Shown: positions 55,300 through 62,467 of the stretch, in pieces
Position numbering within the stretch: the first letter of the stretch is position 1
How the letters are laid out: every line of letters begins with the position of its first letter
Assembly (NCBI GenBank): GCA_902491535.1
Contig: CABUHS010000007.1
Span: forward strand, 17,743 to 81,742
Origin: an uncultured Eubacteriales bacterium
GTDB lineage: Bacteria > Bacillota > Clostridia > Oscillospirales > CAG-272
DNA: 64,000 nucleotides
Direction: 5' to 3'
Program-made: the position numbers and the translations under genes
Notes under the pieces: generated by a model
Databases searched by the model: none
What the model saw: the letters and a program-made list of their open reading frames with translations, nothing else
What the model was told of the DNA's origin: nothing

Positions 55300-55785
55300 T
55301 CATTCGGCACAGTAAAGCGAATACGGGGGATTCTTACCAATATAAGGAGTATAAACAAATCTATTATCTTTAATGGCGTTCCCTATCATGATTTTTGTTA
55401 ATTCCGGTATATCATCACGCGTTAACGATTCCTCAATCGGAATCCATATTACTTCACTGTTTTCATTTCCGTCGGATTGCGGATTTCCAGAAATATATTC
55501 CGCTGTAAAAACAACGTACCAATCATGTGAGTTAAAACGAATTCCGATAATATCTTTCGGTTCGATCACAATATTCACTTCTTCTAAAAACTCTCGTTTT
55601 AAAGCTTCTTGAGGAGTTTCCCCAAATTCAACATATCCTCCCGGTATAATTAATTTCCCCTTTCCGCCTCCATAAGTGTGACGGGCAAGCAGAACTTTAT
55701 TATTTTTTATACATACCGCAGCTACACTTTGACACCAATTCGTATTATCAGAACTCATTTTTTCTTTTCCCCTTTCACTTGTCAT
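55300..55785 (-). CDS. Nudix hydrolase
   Basis: Nudix box GGYVEFGETPQEALKREFLEEVN. Confidence 0.85.
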   Translation of the reverse strand: MTSERGKEKMSSDNTNWCQSVAAVCIKNNKVLLARHTYGGGKGKLIIPGGYVEFGETPQEALKREFLEEVNIVIEPKDIIGIRFNSHDWYVVFTAEYISGNPQSDGNENSEVIWIPIEESLTRDDIPELTKIMIGNAIKDNRFVYTPYIGKNPPYSLYCAE

Positions 55786-55908
55786 TCTTTCCTTACCTTA
55801 TATTACTTTTAATATCTACGTTAATGCAAGTCTCAAGTTCATACATCAAAATCATAGTACACAAGAGAGTCAAAGCCTTCTTTATAACAAAAAGATCTGT
55901 TTGTACAT

Positions 55909-55951
55909 AAAAAATCCCGTGTTCATAACTCAATCCGTTATAAACACGAGA
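55909..55951 (-). terminator. intrinsic terminator immediately 3' of the tRNA-Leu fragment
   Basis: On the minus strand, tctcgtgtt...aacacggga is followed by tttttt. This looks like the native terminator of the original tRNA gene. Confidence 0.6.
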
Positions 55952-55953
55952 CA

Positions 55954-56008
55954 TGGTGCCGGTGGCGGGACTTGAACCCGCACGATGTTGCCATCAACGG
56001 ATTTTGAG
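55954..56008 (-). other. 3' fragment of tRNA-Leu (anticodon CAA): anticodon loop through CCA only; probable attachment-site or junction remnant
   Basis: The reverse complement ctcaaaatccgttgatggcaacatcgtgcgggttcaagtcccgccaccggcacca covers the anticodon loop, the 3' anticodon stem, a long variable arm, the T-arm, the acceptor 3' strand and CCA. No matching 5' acceptor strand (gccggtg) lies within 100 nt upstream. Confidence 0.7.
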
Positions 56009-56313
56009 TTTTAAATGAAACTCCGTACACCGCCGAATTGACCGCCTTTCAGGGGATTAGAACCGAACCCGAAAAGTCAATGTTTTCAAGTCTTTTGAGG
56101 TAGTTTCCTCTGAAAAGCCTTGATTTATAAGGGCGCATTGAATTTTTCCGATTTGGCGCTCGATTTTGCAAAACGGAGGGATATTGGAGGGATGTTGACA
56201 GGATCGCAATTCCCTCCGAACAACAACTGCGTGCATTAACACACGCACTAAATTCATTTTCAAAGCATACGATCATCTGCCATTGACAAATTTTATAAAG
56301 GAGATCGTAAACT

Positions 56314-56559
56314 ATGAAATTCAAACCTAACGATTATTTTCTGAAGCAATACCCTGATCTGTTGAACACCAAAGAGGTAGGAGAAATTTTGCGGATAAGC
56401 ACAAAAACGGTTTGCAAAATGATCCATGAGGGCGAAATAAAAGCTTTTAGTGTGGCAAGAAAGACACTCGTTCCCAAAGTCTATTTGCTCCAATATATCT
56501 ATGGAAAAGACGCTCCGAAGATTGACGACTTGGTAAAGATATATGGAGGCGAAAAATGA
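56314..56559 (+). CDS. excisionase-family (MerR-like) HTH DNA-binding protein
   Basis: LNTKEVGEILRISTKTVCKMIHEGEIKAFSVARKTLVPK is a typical helix-turn-helix_17 pattern. Confidence 0.7.
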   Translation: MKFKPNDYFLKQYPDLLNTKEVGEILRISTKTVCKMIHEGEIKAFSVARKTLVPKVYLLQYIYGKDAPKIDDLVKIYGGEK

Positions 56560-56798
56560 AATCAAGGATGCACTATGAAAAACTTTTTGCCCCATATCCT
56601 GATGTTGTGACTTTGCCGGAGTTTTGTAATATGCTCGGCGGTATCGGAGACAGCACAGCCCGAAAACTTATACAGGCAAACAAGGTCAAGCACTTCTACA
56701 TAAGATGTACATATCTTATCCCCAAAGAAAGCGTAATTGACTATGTGATGAGTTATGACTACTTAGAGTACAGCAAAAAGTTAAAAGCGAGGATTTGA
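56556..56798 (+). CDS. second excisionase-like HTH protein
   Basis: VTLPEFCNMLGGIGDSTARKLIQANKVKHFYIRCTYLIPK. It overlaps the upstream gene by ATGA. Confidence 0.6.
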   Translation: MKSRMHYEKLFAPYPDVVTLPEFCNMLGGIGDSTARKLIQANKVKHFYIRCTYLIPKESVIDYVMSYDYLEYSKKLKARI

Positions 56799-56804
56799 CC
56801 ATCC

Positions 56805-56837
56805 AAAAGCCGTTTGCAGAAATGCAGACGGCTTTTA
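56805..56837. terminator. bidirectional terminator shared by the HTH pair (+) and the Argonaute operon (-)
   Basis: Stem agccgtttgca / tgcagacggct with one G-T pair and a 4-nt loop, flanked by AAAA and TTTT. Confidence 0.8.
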
Positions 56838-56850
56838 AATATTATATGTT

Positions 56851-58380
56851 TTATATATAGTATTTAAATGGCTTTGCCGCCCAATTCACATCAGGAATGG
56901 CTGTTAGAATATCTCCTATTTTATCAGAAAACCGAAGAGTAACTGGAAGCCCATCTCCATACAAACAAGCATTATAATTAAGTTTTGTTAGGGCAAGGAT
57001 ATCTCTCATAACAGTCTTAATATCTGCTTGTCCTCTATTTATTTCAATATGTAATGGGCAAGCAACCTCTAAATGATTAGCGGTTTCAGTTTTGGGGATG
57101 AATCCTTTTGTCCACAAATAACCGCTTTTTTCATCTACATATAAACACAATCCGCGTAAAATGCCATATTGCGATTTGGGGTCGGTATTATCCTTTAACA
57201 ATCTCAGTCCACTTTTTTCTCTAATTGCTACGCCCACCAAATTTGTCGTTGGAGAAATGTTTGCGGCATCTTGAAACCCATTCCATTCATCATTTGTAAA
57301 TGCAGTTCTTCCGTGAATAAATAATTCTTTTGGATAGGATTTGTGTTTGTCGTAATATGCGTCAATAGCTATTGATAACAGTGCTTTTGCTGATATTCTA
57401 TCCAAATGAAAAGTTTTTTCATTTTTGCTTATCCACGGGCCAATATTTCCTCTAAAAACAACGCCATCACCTGAATCAAGAAACATTTGTGCCGCACTGC
57501 AAGCATATCCTTTCTGTTTGCCTGTATCTTGTAGTTTCTTAAACACAAGGCCAACATAACATACGCCCTCTCTTACAGCATCTAACTTCCACGGCAAACA
57601 TCCCAATTTGTAATATAAAGAGCTTGAATGTGTCCATGCAAGATGTGCTTTCATATCGCTATTGTATTCGTCGCTACCATCTTTAGGTTGGAATTGTAAT
57701 GTTGATTCAAGCATTACTTGAATGGGGCATGCTATTTTATTGTAAATTGCCCTCGCTTTTAACTGATCGTGAAAATCCGAATCTGATTCATACATTTCAA
57801 CATATTGGCTCAAATCTTCATTATCTTCTGGAAACAATGATATCTGGCCCGAAGTAAAGGTTTCAATTTGTTTTTTACTATAAGTTGCTTTACCAGAAAG
57901 GGATTTTGGTCTGCATAAAGTCAAGACTGCATTAGGAACAACTACATACCAAATATCTACAACCGATTCTTCGTCCTCTATGTATTTTTTAATTGCATTC
58001 AAATAAAGTGAAACTAAATTATATGTTCTCTCTTTTAGATTTGTAATCGCCAATGCAGTATCTAAGTCACTTTGTGATAAAATTATAGTTGCAGTAGGCT
58101 CGACAGACCATTCAATGCCAAACACTGATTTGAATCCCGGAAAAAATGGTCGTCCGGACGAATTTGTAAAAATTGGTTTATTCATTTGGCATACAAAAGA
58201 GCGATAATATTCCAATCCTTTTTCAGTACAAATAACGCCAACACGAATTGTACTACTATTTTTTTCATACGGTCCGAAAAGAGTTAGCCCATCCCTACTG
58301 TCCTCTGCGGATTGATTAAATGCAAATTTGAGCTTTGGTTCTTCCATATAGTATAATTGATTATTCGGCATTTTCATCAC
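56851..58380 (-). CDS. short prokaryotic Argonaute (MID-PIWI only), SPARTA-type
   Basis: 509 aa, too short for the N and PAZ lobes. It shows the blocks I recognise from characterised SPARTA Agos: EEPKLKFAFNQ..DSRDGLTLFGP, FHDQLKAR...PIQV (HK-type MID 5'-phosphate pocket), HLAWT, PWKL, AAQMFLDSGDGVVF, LTKLNYNAC, PVTLRFSDKIGDILTA and the C-terminal KPFKYYI. GTG at 58380; ATG alternatives at 58377 and 58371. Confidence 0.9.
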   Translation of the reverse strand: MMKMPNNQLYYMEEPKLKFAFNQSAEDSRDGLTLFGPYEKNSSTIRVGVICTEKGLEYYRSFVCQMNKPIFTNSSGRPFFPGFKSVFGIEWSVEPTATIILSQSDLDTALAITNLKERTYNLVSLYLNAIKKYIEDEESVVDIWYVVVPNAVLTLCRPKSLSGKATYSKKQIETFTSGQISLFPEDNEDLSQYVEMYESDSDFHDQLKARAIYNKIACPIQVMLESTLQFQPKDGSDEYNSDMKAHLAWTHSSSLYYKLGCLPWKLDAVREGVCYVGLVFKKLQDTGKQKGYACSAAQMFLDSGDGVVFRGNIGPWISKNEKTFHLDRISAKALLSIAIDAYYDKHKSYPKELFIHGRTAFTNDEWNGFQDAANISPTTNLVGVAIREKSGLRLLKDNTDPKSQYGILRGLCLYVDEKSGYLWTKGFIPKTETANHLEVACPLHIEINRGQADIKTVMRDILALTKLNYNACLYGDGLPVTLRFSDKIGDILTAIPDVNWAAKPFKYYI

Positions 58381-59665
58381 CTACCTGTTTATAAACATAC
58401 GGTTCTATATAACTCTTTTCTGAAATGAAACGCTCTGATTGACTTCTAATGTACATAGCATTTTCTTCGCAACAAGGGGTATAGAAAATATTTTCTGTTC
58501 CACCTGACAAGAAAAACATACTTGCTTGCAACCATTCTTTCCACTGCTTGTTGAACATCAAACGGCCTTTGCTTCGACGAGCTGCAATTTGTGAGGCATC
58601 AGGTAGAGGAATACCCTTTTCATCTGTAAAGATTATATGCCACTTAAATATTATCCCAGACATCGGATAATTTGTATAATACCCGCTCAATCCAAAATGC
58701 CATCTTTTTATACTTCTATAAGTTCCCGAAAGAGCTTTTTCTCTACTTGTTGCAAAGCGCTTTGATTTCGCACCATTAGGGAAAAAGTAAACATTTTTAC
58801 TGGTTTTACCTGAATTTGATTTATAACGACGCAAGCCGTGTTTGTAAAACATTTCACCTATCATCCAATTCACTATTGAAACAATATCGCGCGAAAGGTT
58901 GGATATGGATTCTCCAAGATATGTATTGGGTAAGGTGTGGTTTTGGATAGCGTCTTTTGTGTCCAACTTAATGAAATCTACTTCTCTCAAACACCAATCA
59001 CAGATACATTTGTTGCAGGCAAATGTCACGATTACTTTCTTATTCTTTTTCATAGGAATATGTCGAGTAGTTAAAACTTCTTCAACATCTTCTCTTTTAT
59101 AAATATAAACGGATTCGGGAAGATCGAGAGCAAAAAGGTTACTGCAATATTCATCTTCGTTATCAACTGTTTGCGATCTGAGCTTGGTTTGAGAACTAAA
59201 CCATCTATCGATATAATGCTGACTATCAGTATTTGACATGACCTTAACTATGTTTTCATCATTTAGATATTTTAACAAAGTCTCTAATCCCTTTGCCCAA
59301 TCATTGTAGAAATCAATTGCATTTAGTCGCAATATTTCTACAGGAAGGTCATTGTAGCTTACATTATCGATTCTAACTGGAACGATAAAATTGGGGTTCT
59401 GCCTTCTTATTTTATCTGCAACAGCCAATTCTTTTTGTACACCATCTCTGTTCGGATCAATAGATGCATTACTCATTACGAAAATAAACTTCACGGCATC
59501 ATTGCGAATTGTTTGGTCGATAGTATTCCAAAAATCAACGGATGGAGCAAGATCATTTAAATCTACCCACACCTTGTAACCGCAAAGTTCAAGTTTTGTT
59601 GCAAGCCATGTAGCAAAAATATTGTCAGTCGGAGTTGCATGACTAATAAAAATAGTATCTTTCAT
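58361..59665 (-). CDS. TIR-APAZ protein (TIR NADase effector fused to an APAZ Argonaute-partner domain)
   Basis: The N-terminal TIR domain (IFISHATPTDNIFATWLATKLELCGYKVWVD...FIFVMSNASI...GVQKELAVA, with a candidate catalytic Glu) is followed by about 290 aa. The 3' end overlaps the Argonaute start by 11-20 nt, and the size (434 aa) matches SPARTA partners. Confidence 0.9.
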   Translation of the reverse strand: MKDTIFISHATPTDNIFATWLATKLELCGYKVWVDLNDLAPSVDFWNTIDQTIRNDAVKFIFVMSNASIDPNRDGVQKELAVADKIRRQNPNFIVPVRIDNVSYNDLPVEILRLNAIDFYNDWAKGLETLLKYLNDENIVKVMSNTDSQHYIDRWFSSQTKLRSQTVDNEDEYCSNLFALDLPESVYIYKREDVEEVLTTRHIPMKKNKKVIVTFACNKCICDWCLREVDFIKLDTKDAIQNHTLPNTYLGESISNLSRDIVSIVNWMIGEMFYKHGLRRYKSNSGKTSKNVYFFPNGAKSKRFATSREKALSGTYRSIKRWHFGLSGYYTNYPMSGIIFKWHIIFTDEKGIPLPDASQIAARRSKGRLMFNKQWKEWLQASMFFLSGGTENIFYTPCCEENAMYIRSQSERFISEKSYIEPYVYKQVGDENAE

Positions 59666-59667
59666 AA

Positions 59668-60600
59668 TTATCTACCTCCTGACAAAAGTTCTGCATAGTT
59701 ATTCAACCGTTCCTCTACATACTCAGCAATCATCTGAACTATAGCCCCTGCGTCGTTATCTCTGTAATAACTGTCAAAGGTTTCATAATACCGCTTGCGG
59801 TCAGCAAACTTCACATTGATAGGAGGATAGCCGTTCTGCATAAGAAACAGGTTCAGGATCAAACGCCCTGTACGGCCGTTGCCGTCTACGAACGGGTGGA
59901 TTCCCTCAAATTTTAGATGAAACAGCGCTGCACTCTCAATCGGGTGTAGCTTTTTCTTTGAAAACTCTTTTATGAGCTTTTCCATCTGTTCCGGTACAAC
60001 AACCGGCTCCGGCGGCGTGTGGTATGCTCCCATGATTCTAACGGGAATCCGTCGATAAACGCCGCGATCTTCCGGTCTATCCATCAAAACCAGAGTATGA
60101 ATCTGCTTAATAATGTTTTCTGAAAAAGGAACTTTATCTTTTACTAATTCCTGTACATAAAGAAATGCGTCTTTGTGCCCGACGGCTTCTAAATGATCTT
60201 TCAACGGCTTTCGGTCAATCGTAATACCCTCTAAAACGAGAGCTGTTTCCTGCAAAGTTAAGGTGTTTCCCTCAATCGCATTCGAGTTATAAGTGTATTC
60301 AACCAAAAATTCTTCTTGTAACCGCTGTAATTCACCTCTCGTAAGTGGTCGCCGCTGATCTAACTGTTCCTTTAGGCTGTCAATGCGGGAAAACAACGGC
60401 AAATATTGTTCCGACACTGCTTTATGACGAAGGGTGCGCCCGTCAATCGGCTTTACAGCGTCACACGGTATTAGGTAAGAGCGCCCTTTTTGAATAACAC
60501 CTTCAATTTTTCCTTGCTGGCACAGAATACGAACCCTGCGATCAGAAATGCCCCATTGTTCCGCCGCCTGCGTGACTTTCATATATTCCATTGCGTTCAC
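59668..60600 (-). CDS. Fic-domain protein with an N-terminal HTH and an internal inhibitory motif
   Basis: It has the canonical Fic motif HPFVDGNGRTGR, an upstream SNAIEGN segment matching the (S/T)xxxE(G/N) inhibitory helix, and an N-terminal MerR-like HTH (VTQAAEQWGISDRRVRILCQQGKI). Its stop lies 2 nt before the TIR-APAZ ATG. Confidence 0.9.
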   Translation of the reverse strand: MNAMEYMKVTQAAEQWGISDRRVRILCQQGKIEGVIQKGRSYLIPCDAVKPIDGRTLRHKAVSEQYLPLFSRIDSLKEQLDQRRPLTRGELQRLQEEFLVEYTYNSNAIEGNTLTLQETALVLEGITIDRKPLKDHLEAVGHKDAFLYVQELVKDKVPFSENIIKQIHTLVLMDRPEDRGVYRRIPVRIMGAYHTPPEPVVVPEQMEKLIKEFSKKKLHPIESAALFHLKFEGIHPFVDGNGRTGRLILNLFLMQNGYPPINVKFADRKRYYETFDSYYRDNDAGAIVQMIAEYVEERLNNYAELLSGGR

Positions 60601-60756
60601 CGCCTACATAACATTCTTGTTTTTTATAGTATAGCACATAATCGGAATAATATCAATCTATTTTGCAGAAACTTCGGATTCATATCATTCCTAAATTTAC
60701 ATAGCCGTCTGCTTCGCCGCAGGCGGCTAAATCTATGTAAAGGAGGAAACCCCAAA

Positions 60757-61581
60757 ATGGCGAACTGTAAAGTAATAGCGGTGACGAACCAAAAAGGCGG
60801 CGTGGGTAAAACCACAACGACCGCCAACCTCGGAATCGGTCTTGCACAGGAAAACAAACGGGTCTTGCTGGTCGACGCAGACGCGCAGGCTTCTTTGACG
60901 CTCTCCCTCGGCTACCCCAAACCCGACGAGCTGCCCGTTACCCTTACGGACATTATGCAGGCGGTAATTGACGACGCCCCGATTCCCGACGGTCACGGTA
61001 TTCTGCACCACGGCGAGGGCGTTGATCTGCTGCCCGCGAATATCACATTGTCGGGTATGGAAATCCGGCTCATAAACGCTATGAACCGTGAACGGGCGCT
61101 GCGGACATATCTTAATGAAGTGAAACCCCATTACGACTATATCCTCATTGACTGTATGCCGTCGCTCGGCATTATGCCGCTGAACTCATTAGCGGCAGCG
61201 GACAGCGTTATCATTCCGTCGCAGCCGTCGTTTCTATCAGCAAAGGATCTGGATTTGCTCATGCACTCCATTTCACAGGTTAAACGGCAGATTAACCCCA
61301 AGCTAAAAATCGACGGGATTCTTTTCACGATGGTGGATAGCCGTACCAACGAGGCAAAGGAAATCATCGCTTCTCTGCGCGCTCACTACGGCGAGAAAAT
61401 CCGTGTGTTTAATACGGAAATACCCTTTTCCGTAAGAGCCGCCGAAACCAGCGGCAGAGGCAAGAGCATTTATGCTCACGACAAAAACGGTAAGGTTGCC
61501 GCCGCATACCACGCGCTGACAAAGGAGGTGTTGGAGATTGAGCGTAAAAACGAGAGATTTAGGAATGACGCCGTTAGATGA
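60757..61581 (+). CDS. parA: ParA-family partition ATPase
   Basis: Deviant Walker A NQKGGVGKTTT with an AAGGAGG RBS. The ORF-track N-terminal extension (from 60490) is antisense to the Fic gene end and implausible. Confidence 0.9.
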   Translation: MANCKVIAVTNQKGGVGKTTTTANLGIGLAQENKRVLLVDADAQASLTLSLGYPKPDELPVTLTDIMQAVIDDAPIPDGHGILHHGEGVDLLPANITLSGMEIRLINAMNRERALRTYLNEVKPHYDYILIDCMPSLGIMPLNSLAAADSVIIPSQPSFLSAKDLDLLMHSISQVKRQINPKLKIDGILFTMVDSRTNEAKEIIASLRAHYGEKIRVFNTEIPFSVRAAETSGRGKSIYAHDKNGKVAAAYHALTKEVLEIERKNERFRNDAVR

Positions 61582-62467
61582 CCTGTTTTCTACTGATGAA
61601 AGCCGAGCAGAATCACAGCTTGAAAAGGTCGTGACGCTGAATCCCGTTGAAATCTCCGACTTTCCGAACCACCCGTTCAAGGTCAAGCAGGACGAGGCAA
61701 TGGCTGAAATGGTCGAGAGCGTCCGAAAATACGGCGTGTTAGTTCCGGCTCTTGTCCGACCGAAAGAGGACGGCGGCTATGAAATGGTCGCAGGCCACAG
61801 GCGAAAGTTTGCGGCCGCTCTGGCTGAACTGACGGAAATTCCGTGTATCGTCCGCAATCTCTCCGACGATGAAGCTACCATTATCATGGTGGATAGCAAC
61901 CTGCAAAGGGAAACGATTTTACCGTCCGAAAAAGCATTTGCCTATAAAATGAAGTTGGACGCTATGAAAAGGCAGGGACAGAGGTCGGATTTAACTTCGC
62001 GCCCACTGGACACGAAGTCACGATCTGATGAACAGTTGGCAAAAGATTCTCCCGATAGTGCAAGGCAAATCCAACGCTATATCCGTTTGACCGAGCTTAT
62101 TCCCTCTGTCCTGCAAATGGTTGACGACGGAAAAATTGCTTTCCGTCCTGCCGTTGAGCTTTCCTATCTTTCCAAAGAACAGCAGGAATCCCTATACAGC
62201 ACAATGGAATGTGAGGACTGCACCCCGTCTTTGGCACAGGCTATCAAAATGAAAGAGTTTAGCAAAGATGGCAAGTTGACCGACGAGGTGATTCTCTCCA
62301 TTATGCAGGAGGAAAAGCCGAATCAGAAAGAACAGTTCAAAATGCCGAAAGAGCGTATCAGCAAATATTTTGCGCCGGGGACGCCCGCGCAGAAAATTGA
62401 AGATACCATTATTAAGGCTTTGGAACTATACCGAAAGCGTGAACGGCAAAAGGGCATGGAAAGGTAG
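61538..62467 (+). CDS. parB: ParB/Spo0J-family protein (ParB N-terminal nuclease-like domain)
   Basis: Motifs NHPFKVK, VLVPALVRP and VAGHRRKFAA. The start is TTG at 61538 after AAGGAGGTG. Confidence 0.85.
   Translation: MSVKTRDLGMTPLDDLFSTDESRAESQLEKVVTLNPVEISDFPNHPFKVKQDEAMAEMVESVRKYGVLVPALVRPKEDGGYEMVAGHRRKFAAALAELTEIPCIVRNLSDDEATIIMVDSNLQRETILPSEKAFAYKMKLDAMKRQGQRSDLTSRPLDTKSRSDEQLAKDSPDSARQIQRYIRLTELIPSVLQMVDDGKIAFRPAVELSYLSKEQQESLYSTMECEDCTPSLAQAIKMKEFSKDGKLTDEVILSIMQEEKPNQKEQFKMPKERISKYFAPGTPAQKIEDTIIKALELYRKRERQKGMER

Follow-up and report, generated by a model that had tools for sequence, protein, structure and literature searches.

In hotspot 5 of the SXT integrative conjugative element (ICE) and in the P2/P4 hotspots (PMC9122126), defence systems replace one another at one fixed position between conserved backbone genes, and cargo spreads between diverged backbones. 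Integron-type platforms likewise hold interchangeable, promoterless cassettes at a fixed point behind a resident promoter and gene, and read them from the platform promoter. We analysed a comparable locus in a 64,000-nucleotide (nt) stretch of contig CABUHS010000007.1 from an uncultured Eubacteriales bacterium; "the window" hereafter means this whole stretch. In it, a gene for a Fic protein with an N-terminal helix-turn-helix (HTH) directly precedes the two genes of a SPARTA defence system, one for a TIR-APAZ protein and one for a short prokaryotic Argonaute (pAgo). The locus is best described as a cargo slot behind a resident Fic, filled by an ordinary two-gene SPARTA, and as a fresh example of a known hotspot type. 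Fic is very probably a backbone gene of a conjugative element, and SPARTA its exchangeable cargo. In contrast to the SXT and P2/P4 hotspots, the host belongs to the gut Clostridia and the element is a different one; the left border lies in the 3′ end of Fic and the right border is a common terminator; and the cargo, which looks promoterless, probably depends on the backbone for its expression. Unlike an integron, the slot accommodates one defence system as its only unit of cargo rather than a cassette array, and has neither attC-like repeats flanking the cassette nor an integron integrase. A literature search, limited in extent, gave nothing specific on a Fic-SPARTA link or on a Fic-flanked ICE hotspot. 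The features of the locus, with positions in the window and the basis of each call, are:

60628-60656, minus strand: promoter-like site upstream of Fic (TTGATA, 17 nt with TG, TATACT); consensus match
59668-60600, minus strand: HTH-Fic gene, 310 aa from GTG; Pfam, PADLOC and translation
60265-60285, minus strand: SNAIEGN, aa 106-112 of Fic, in agreement with the (S/T)xxxE(G/N) motif of auto-inhibitory helices; translation
59863-59898, minus strand: Fic catalytic loop HPFVDGNGRTGR, aa 235-246; translation
59698-59730, minus strand: left border of the slot, in the last ~13 Fic codons; alignments with backbones that carry other cargo break off here, where the near-identical SPARTA cassette starts
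59675-59679, minus strand: ribosome-binding site GGAGG of TIR-APAZ, within Fic codons; sequence
58361-59665, minus strand: TIR-APAZ gene, 434 aa; Pfam, PADLOC and structure alignment
56851-58380, minus strand: short pAgo (MID-PIWI) gene, 509 aa, overlapping the end of TIR-APAZ; PADLOC and structure alignment
56805-56836, unstranded: hairpin terminator, the right border of the slot, between the Ago stop and the HTHb stop; folding

The initial annotation had proposed a candidate new SPARTA variant of three genes, with Fic as an obligatory partner. The observations from which it started were correct. Translation and Pfam confirmed the intact Fic motif, the internal SNAIEGN and the N-terminal HTH. 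The Fic stop codon TAA (59670-59668) is followed by TT and then by the TIR-APAZ ATG (59665-59663), so that the gap is 2 nt as had been described, and the GGAGG of TIR-APAZ was found inside the last Fic codons. The assignment of the downstream genes to SPARTA was borne out by PADLOC and by alignment with solved chains. The three-gene variant itself was not supported, because Fic is not conserved beside related SPARTA loci; in addition, other cargo occupies the same slot, and Fic and SPARTA have separate histories.

The content of the slot was examined in a metagenome scan for close relatives of the window's Fic. This gave 79 loci, ~46 of which were informative (Fic identity of at least 85%, and enough downstream sequence). 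SPARTA stood behind Fic in 16 of these, although the search patterns derived from the window's own Fic. In others, Fic was followed by PDC-M14A/B (10 loci, including L160-163, L170/171, L176, L190 and L197; locus numbers are our own), SIR2-HerA (three loci: L136, L158 and L182), Gabija (GajA/GajB; one locus, L179), a convergent AAA-ATPase/PD-(D/E)XK gene (four loci), or a Mn-catalase gene, followed in the longer loci by teichoic-acid glycosyltransferases (10 loci). A 94%-identical Fic in the same ParB-ParA/Fic backbone, with the same small HTH_17 gene pair after the cargo, was present in L001 and L002. Their cargo consisted of HNH/CTD11, MC6/MC7 and DUF2326 genes, which PADLOC assigned to PDC-M68A/B (PDC-M68/ABC-3C-like). 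In every clear cassette variant the cargo lay on the Fic strand and started between an 8-nt overlap and ~55 nt past the Fic stop. Five cargo types (SPARTA, SIR2-HerA, Gabija, PDC-M14 and PDC-M68) occupied the interval from the Fic 3′ end to the terminator/HTH pair. A mobile-element defence hotspot is defined by different defence systems that occupy one position between conserved flanks, and by these comparisons the locus is one.

A similar arrangement was seen at greater distance. HTH-Fic homologues of 57-63% identity, in other Clostridia and on gut metagenome contigs, had defence genes directly behind them on the same strand (L219, L220, L222, L228, L193, L196 and L199). These were PDC-S41, an HKD-Snf2 helicase with type III restriction-modification (R-M), SpbK with type III R-M, PDC-S72 (a second Fic type), type I R-M, and type IIG R-M. 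As judged from these neighbourhoods, Fic habitually heads variable defence cargo. Other homologues of 57-63% identity precede housekeeping-looking genes.

Some loci of the metagenome scan had unusual contents. In L137, L142, L147 and L150, the convergent gene after Fic encodes a 625-aa AAA-ATPase and PD-(D/E)XK protein with an N-terminus similar to the HTH of Fic; behind this gene lies a 5′ fragment of a second parA, which suggests nested or tandem elements. In L146 and L142, where Fic is followed by Mn-catalase, a ribosome-binding site and the first PDC-M14A codons persist just after the Fic stop; in L146 the PDC-M14A ATG is changed to ACG. These traces look like remnants of lost cargo.

The borders of the slot were located by DNA comparison. 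In loci with other cargo (L001, L136, L179, L182, L160, L146 and L142), similarity to the window ended at 59705-59714, ~40 nt before the Fic stop, and restarted at 56798-56840, at the hairpin terminator. In L001, for example, DNA identity to the window was 92% up to 59714 and again from 56798. The slot, as delimited by these alignments, extends from ~59705, in the last ~40 nt of Fic, to the terminator at 56805-56836. Comparison among SPARTA carriers gave the same left border from the opposite side. Sliding-window identity between L164 and the window was 70-85% in Fic DNA and 98-100% in SPARTA, with the step at ~59705; L131 and L159 showed the same step, from 88-95% to 98-100%. Inheritance of Fic and SPARTA as one unit was therefore not found in any of the three. 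The Fic protein was 96% identical to that of the window in L136 (SIR2-HerA) and L179 (Gabija), and 88-92% identical in several SPARTA carriers. GC content also changed in steps, from 0.35 in SPARTA to 0.44 in Fic and 0.50 in parAB. From the identity step, the Fic identities in loci with other cargo, and the GC steps, it follows that the SPARTA cassette, as reconstructed from these sequences, recently moved between diverged backbones without Fic. Taken at the level of sequence, these comparisons establish how the slot is built, that its cargo is interchangeable, and that Fic and SPARTA have histories of their own.

In three backbones (L131, L159/L194 and L164) the left breakpoint lay in a stretch of ~30 nt at the conserved Fic codons for EYVEER. 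This narrow range, 59698-59730, hints at a preferred or site-specific exchange point. A search for direct or inverted repeats flanking the cassette (attC-like repeats or a target duplication) returned only the terminator hairpin and short matches at chance level.

We then considered SPARTA relatives with and without Fic. A one-genome-per-species scan with a TIR-APAZ profile gave 80 loci, whose 6-kb flanks were searched for Fic by phmmer and by motif. Intact Fic was present beside SPARTA in only two of the 80, L013 and L018 (TIR-APAZ identity 98% and 94%, respectively), and Fic fragments in L014 and L015 (73%). Fic was absent from the 6-kb flanks of the remaining genome loci, including L016 (60%), L019 (55%), L017 (45%) and ~70 distant SPARTAs. 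The closest full-length TIR-APAZ relative in the protein collection had 78% identity. Neither Fic nor a Fic remnant was found upstream of SPARTA in four further close relatives; the upstream neighbour was a type IIG R-M-like gene in L209 (TIR-APAZ 78%), PDC-S27 in L210 (71%), an MmeI-type enzyme in L213 (69%), and HipBA in L214 (63%). The survey for a conserved upstream Fic thus had a negative outcome: Fic was intact in two of 80 genome loci, dead in the 73% clade, and absent in six relatives at 55-78%.

In the 73% clade (L004-L011, L014 and L015), the Fic remnant has a ~60-residue internal deletion together with a stop codon or frameshift, and the L004 copy has Leu in place of the catalytic His (ILPFADGNDH). 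Beside these dead remnants, the SPARTA open reading frames (434 and 506 aa) are intact in many samples. The clade lies outside the conjugative element, beside IS66 genes and integrases, and retains a decayed 3′ piece of the ICE-type Fic in the same geometry. The 73% SPARTA lineage probably once sat in the Fic slot. L003 (74%) is different: an unrelated, SoFic-type Fic, without the N-terminal HTH and with 31% identity to the window's Fic, lies 168 nt upstream of SPARTA, in an island that includes an OLD-type nuclease and integrases.

The expression signals of the locus were analysed in the same way. SPARTA relatives without Fic have an equivalent ribosome-binding site 8-10 nt before a TTG start; the GGAGG therefore belongs to the SPARTA cassette, although it lies within Fic codons. 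A consensus scan found no terminator-like site between Fic and TIR-APAZ. Only ~40 nt of SPARTA-specific DNA precede the TIR-APAZ ATG, and these contain no promoter, so that the cassette has no room for one of its own; for this reason read-through from Fic into SPARTA is likely. The site at 60656-60628 matches 10 of 12 consensus positions and has an extended -10 TG; on this consensus match only, it is a candidate promoter from which Fic and the downstream cargo could be transcribed. At the other end of the slot, the terminator at 56805-56836 folds at -21.5 kcal/mol (z -5.3) and is kept after every cargo type that precedes the HTH genes. The junction geometry (2-nt gap, no terminator, promoterless cassette) argues, on balance, for co-transcription of Fic and SPARTA. 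A single transcript is plausible, and the promoterless cassette and the common terminator, if anything, strengthen this idea.

Three other explanations were weighed. The least probable is a dedicated SPARTA variant made up of three genes, Fic, TIR-APAZ and pAgo, in which Fic would be a SPARTA-specific regulator, a second effector or an anti-anti-defence component. The 2-nt stop-start gap and the ribosome-binding site in Fic codons would agree with such a variant, as would the persistence of the arrangement in L013, L018 and 16 metagenome loci, the Fic remnants of the 73% clade in the same geometry, and the SoFic-type gene upstream of SPARTA in L003. However, a single element family holds all intact cases, the cassette boundary leaves out Fic except for the last ~13 codons, and other cargoes hold the same position. 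Outside the element family, no Fic accompanies the closest SPARTA (78%) or five further relatives; ~70 more distant loci lack Fic in their 6-kb flanks; and the remnants are catalytically dead or frameshifted next to intact SPARTA. The comparative data have already largely refuted the three-gene variant, and we regard it as highly improbable. SPARTA relatives are always found among defence genes (type IIG R-M, PDC-S27, MmeI, HipBA and OLD-type nuclease), and Fic contains a promoter-like site. Fic and SPARTA might accordingly be independent defence genes that are together only through defence-gene clustering, with separate transcription and no common expression platform. This is distinctly unlikely: the ~40 nt of SPARTA-specific DNA before the ATG holds no promoter, no terminator follows Fic, and the start of all cargo types within ~55 nt of the Fic stop, with one common terminator behind them, is more order than clustering gives. 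A further explanation, also rather unlikely, links Fic to the slot and not to SPARTA specifically. Fic would then be a general regulator or gatekeeper whose HTH autoregulates the Fic promoter and sets cargo expression, or an AMP-transferase layer that cooperates with any cargo. Fic is indeed always co-oriented with the cargo, which is promoterless by geometry; it has a DNA-binding HTH_17 domain; its 57-63% homologues elsewhere also precede defence genes; and PADLOC lists its type as a defence-island candidate, PDC-S04. The same Fic family, however, also occurs alone by housekeeping genes or without a defence gene behind it (e.g., L146, L224, L225, L231 and L233), the 73% clade retains intact SPARTA while Fic decays, and no operator was identified. 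SPARTA, Gabija and SIR2-HerA are self-sufficient in heterologous hosts, which also counts against a gatekeeper.

Several points weigh against our preferred description of Fic as a backbone gene and SPARTA as exchangeable cargo. Fic accompanies this SPARTA clade too often for a purely random neighbour (intact ICE-type Fic, the remnants of the 73% clade, and the SoFic-type gene of L003); because Fic-type genes recur in this way, there may be some functional synergy between them and SPARTA. The promoter-like site inside Fic, 59939-59910, could drive SPARTA alone. It was the sole candidate for a SPARTA promoter inside Fic and was not accepted as one; it lies in strongly conserved coding DNA, so its conservation is uninformative. 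TIR-APAZ starts with ATG (59665-59663) in the element-borne version and with TTG in all close relatives elsewhere that were examined (L003, L004, L016, L019 and L209-L214), and this ATG could be an adaptation of TIR-APAZ to coupling with Fic. The metagenome sample, finally, is biased to close relatives of the window's Fic; since the search patterns were the window's own Fic, it is tilted to SPARTA carriers.

Fic relatives begin MEYMK..., corresponding to the ATG at 60591 of the window, which is a likelier start than the listed GTG. Pfam detected a Fic/DOC domain at aa 158-253 (E 1.4e-23) and HTH_17 at the N-terminus (aa 6-49, E 3.4e-6; 27.6 bits against a cut-off of 27, marginal but above it). 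A SNAIEGN-type helix is established as the mark of class II (self-inhibited) Fic proteins. Both class II features, the HxFx(D/E)GNGRxxR loop and the N-terminal (S/T)xxxE(G/N) helix, are present in one chain, and the product is predicted to be a class II-type AMP-transferase-like protein. The nearest solved relatives of the Fic core were FICD/HYPE (E 8e-36), BtFic 3CUC and CdFic 4X2E, class II Fic AMP transferases that likewise combine a canonical loop with an N-terminal inhibitory helix in the same chain. The alignment with FICD spans aa 68-300; SoFic structures align only with aa 215-257, ~40 residues. In PADLOC, PDC-S04 (E 3.3e-37) came ahead of SoFic (E 4.1e-35). The winged helix of SoFic is C-terminal, whereas the HTH_17 of the window's Fic is N-terminal. 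By sequence, this HTH-Fic subfamily is likened to the single-gene defence candidates PDC-S04 and SoFic, with putative function and target; it may be regarded as a PDC-S04/SoFic-like candidate gene for defence or element maintenance.

More than 8000 close Fic homologues were present in the protein collection, the best with 96-97% identity. Among 400 sampled Clostridia genomes, 44 (35 of 217 genera) had homologues at E <1e-80, and the window's genome had a single Fic copy. Members of the family also occurred in contexts with neither ParA/ParB nor SPARTA nearby. By its predicted domains, Fic is a self-contained gene product with its own HTH, inhibitory helix and catalytic loop, and not a SPARTA subunit.

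TIR-APAZ has a Pfam TIR_2 domain at aa 5-131, matches PADLOC Aga_TIR-PNTD1-PNTD2 over aa 1-427 (E 9.5e-115), and aligns over its full length with solved SPARTA TIR-APAZ chains (E 1e-56). The TIR glutamate at position 79 (E79) is invariant across the alignment of relatives. The short pAgo matches PADLOC pAgo_I (E 7.6e-183), and its residues 8-509 align with the short pAgo of 8fex and 8qlo (E 2e-133). A TIR domain fused to APAZ, together with an adjacent MID-PIWI short pAgo of ~500 aa, constitutes the gene content of SPARTA; on this content the two genes are unambiguously a genuine SPARTA pair. They share their gene order and overlapping junction with MapSPARTA and CrtSPARTA (8fex, 8ifk and 8qlo), and nothing essential differs. 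Unlike these solved systems, the window pair forms a promoterless-looking cassette behind a foreign gene on a conjugative element. Two proteins of the collection, P0168 and P0186, are in-frame TIR-APAZ::pAgo fusions that resemble internal deletions of this SPARTA (96-98% identical pieces); pAgo is frameshifted in L174 (one contig) and fragmented in L215 (another contig). Natural inactivation of SPARTA seems to be recurrent.

The slot lies near one end of a larger element, in which three further features were recognised:

60757-62467, plus strand: parA-parB pair, backbone, divergent from Fic; conserved upstream of Fic in most metagenome loci compared
56314-56798, plus strand: two small HTH_17 genes (81 and 80 aa), excisionase-like, backbone; Pfam
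55954, unstranded: mobile-element end; alignments with seven independent relatives break off at this position or close to it

The small HTH_17 pair is conserved in L001, L131, L136 and L182. As deduced from these comparisons, the order of the terminal module is parA-parB, divergent HTH-Fic, cargo slot, hairpin terminator, two Xis-like HTH genes, and element end. ARAGORN found no tRNA at 55700-56300, around the element end. The contig of the window ends 1.7 kb past the window, and the conjugation genes were read in the relative L018, which has the same ParAB-Fic-SPARTA module. Past this module, the L018 contig encodes SpaA-type adhesins, a DUF3991/Toprim protein and then a C5 methylase, followed further on by a MobA/VirD2 relaxase, a VirD4-type coupling protein, a VirB4-like ATPase and a CHAP hydrolase, with a tyrosine integrase at the far end. 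Because relaxase, coupling protein, VirB4-like ATPase and integrase are on one contig, the L018 element is an ICE. By homology with L018, we infer that the window from 55954 to beyond 64000 is one end of a gut-Clostridia ICE. The backbone had no match in the plasmid collection. When the element-end HTH protein was sought in 400 Clostridia genomes, with the aim of finding slots without Fic, only the window's own genome gave a match.

The action of SPARTA, the role of Fic and the co-transcription of the two are matters of inference. SPARTA would work as a canonical two-protein system, in which recognition of invading DNA by the RNA-guided short pAgo is followed by NAD+ depletion through the TIR domain. 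The cargo would be expressed by transcription entering from the Fic promoter, or from inside Fic, and such expression may be the reason for the tight Fic/SPARTA junction. Transcription of the cargo would stop at the terminator common to all variants. Cassettes are probably exchanged via homologous recombination in the flanks. A bolder proposal, which we consider unlikely but worth stating, makes HTH-Fic the driver of a plug-in defence slot. Promoterless cassettes (SPARTA, SIR2-HerA, Gabija, PDC-M14 and PDC-M68) would be expressed from the Fic promoter, perhaps under the control of Fic, and exchanged at the narrow site in the Fic 3′ end, where the breakpoints of three backbones fall; the slot would then be an integron-like expression platform for whole defence systems on gut-Clostridia conjugative elements.

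A tight stop-start junction alone does not place a gene in a defence system, and a tempting false lead is thereby removed. The comparisons document a slot for defence cargo on a widespread family of gut-Clostridia conjugative elements, by way of which diverged backbones have recently come to share a near-identical SPARTA cassette. If the Fic-driven platform is true, it would be of use in the search for new defence systems, which could be found from the genes behind Fic, and would help to explain how conjugative elements express the cargo that they acquire.

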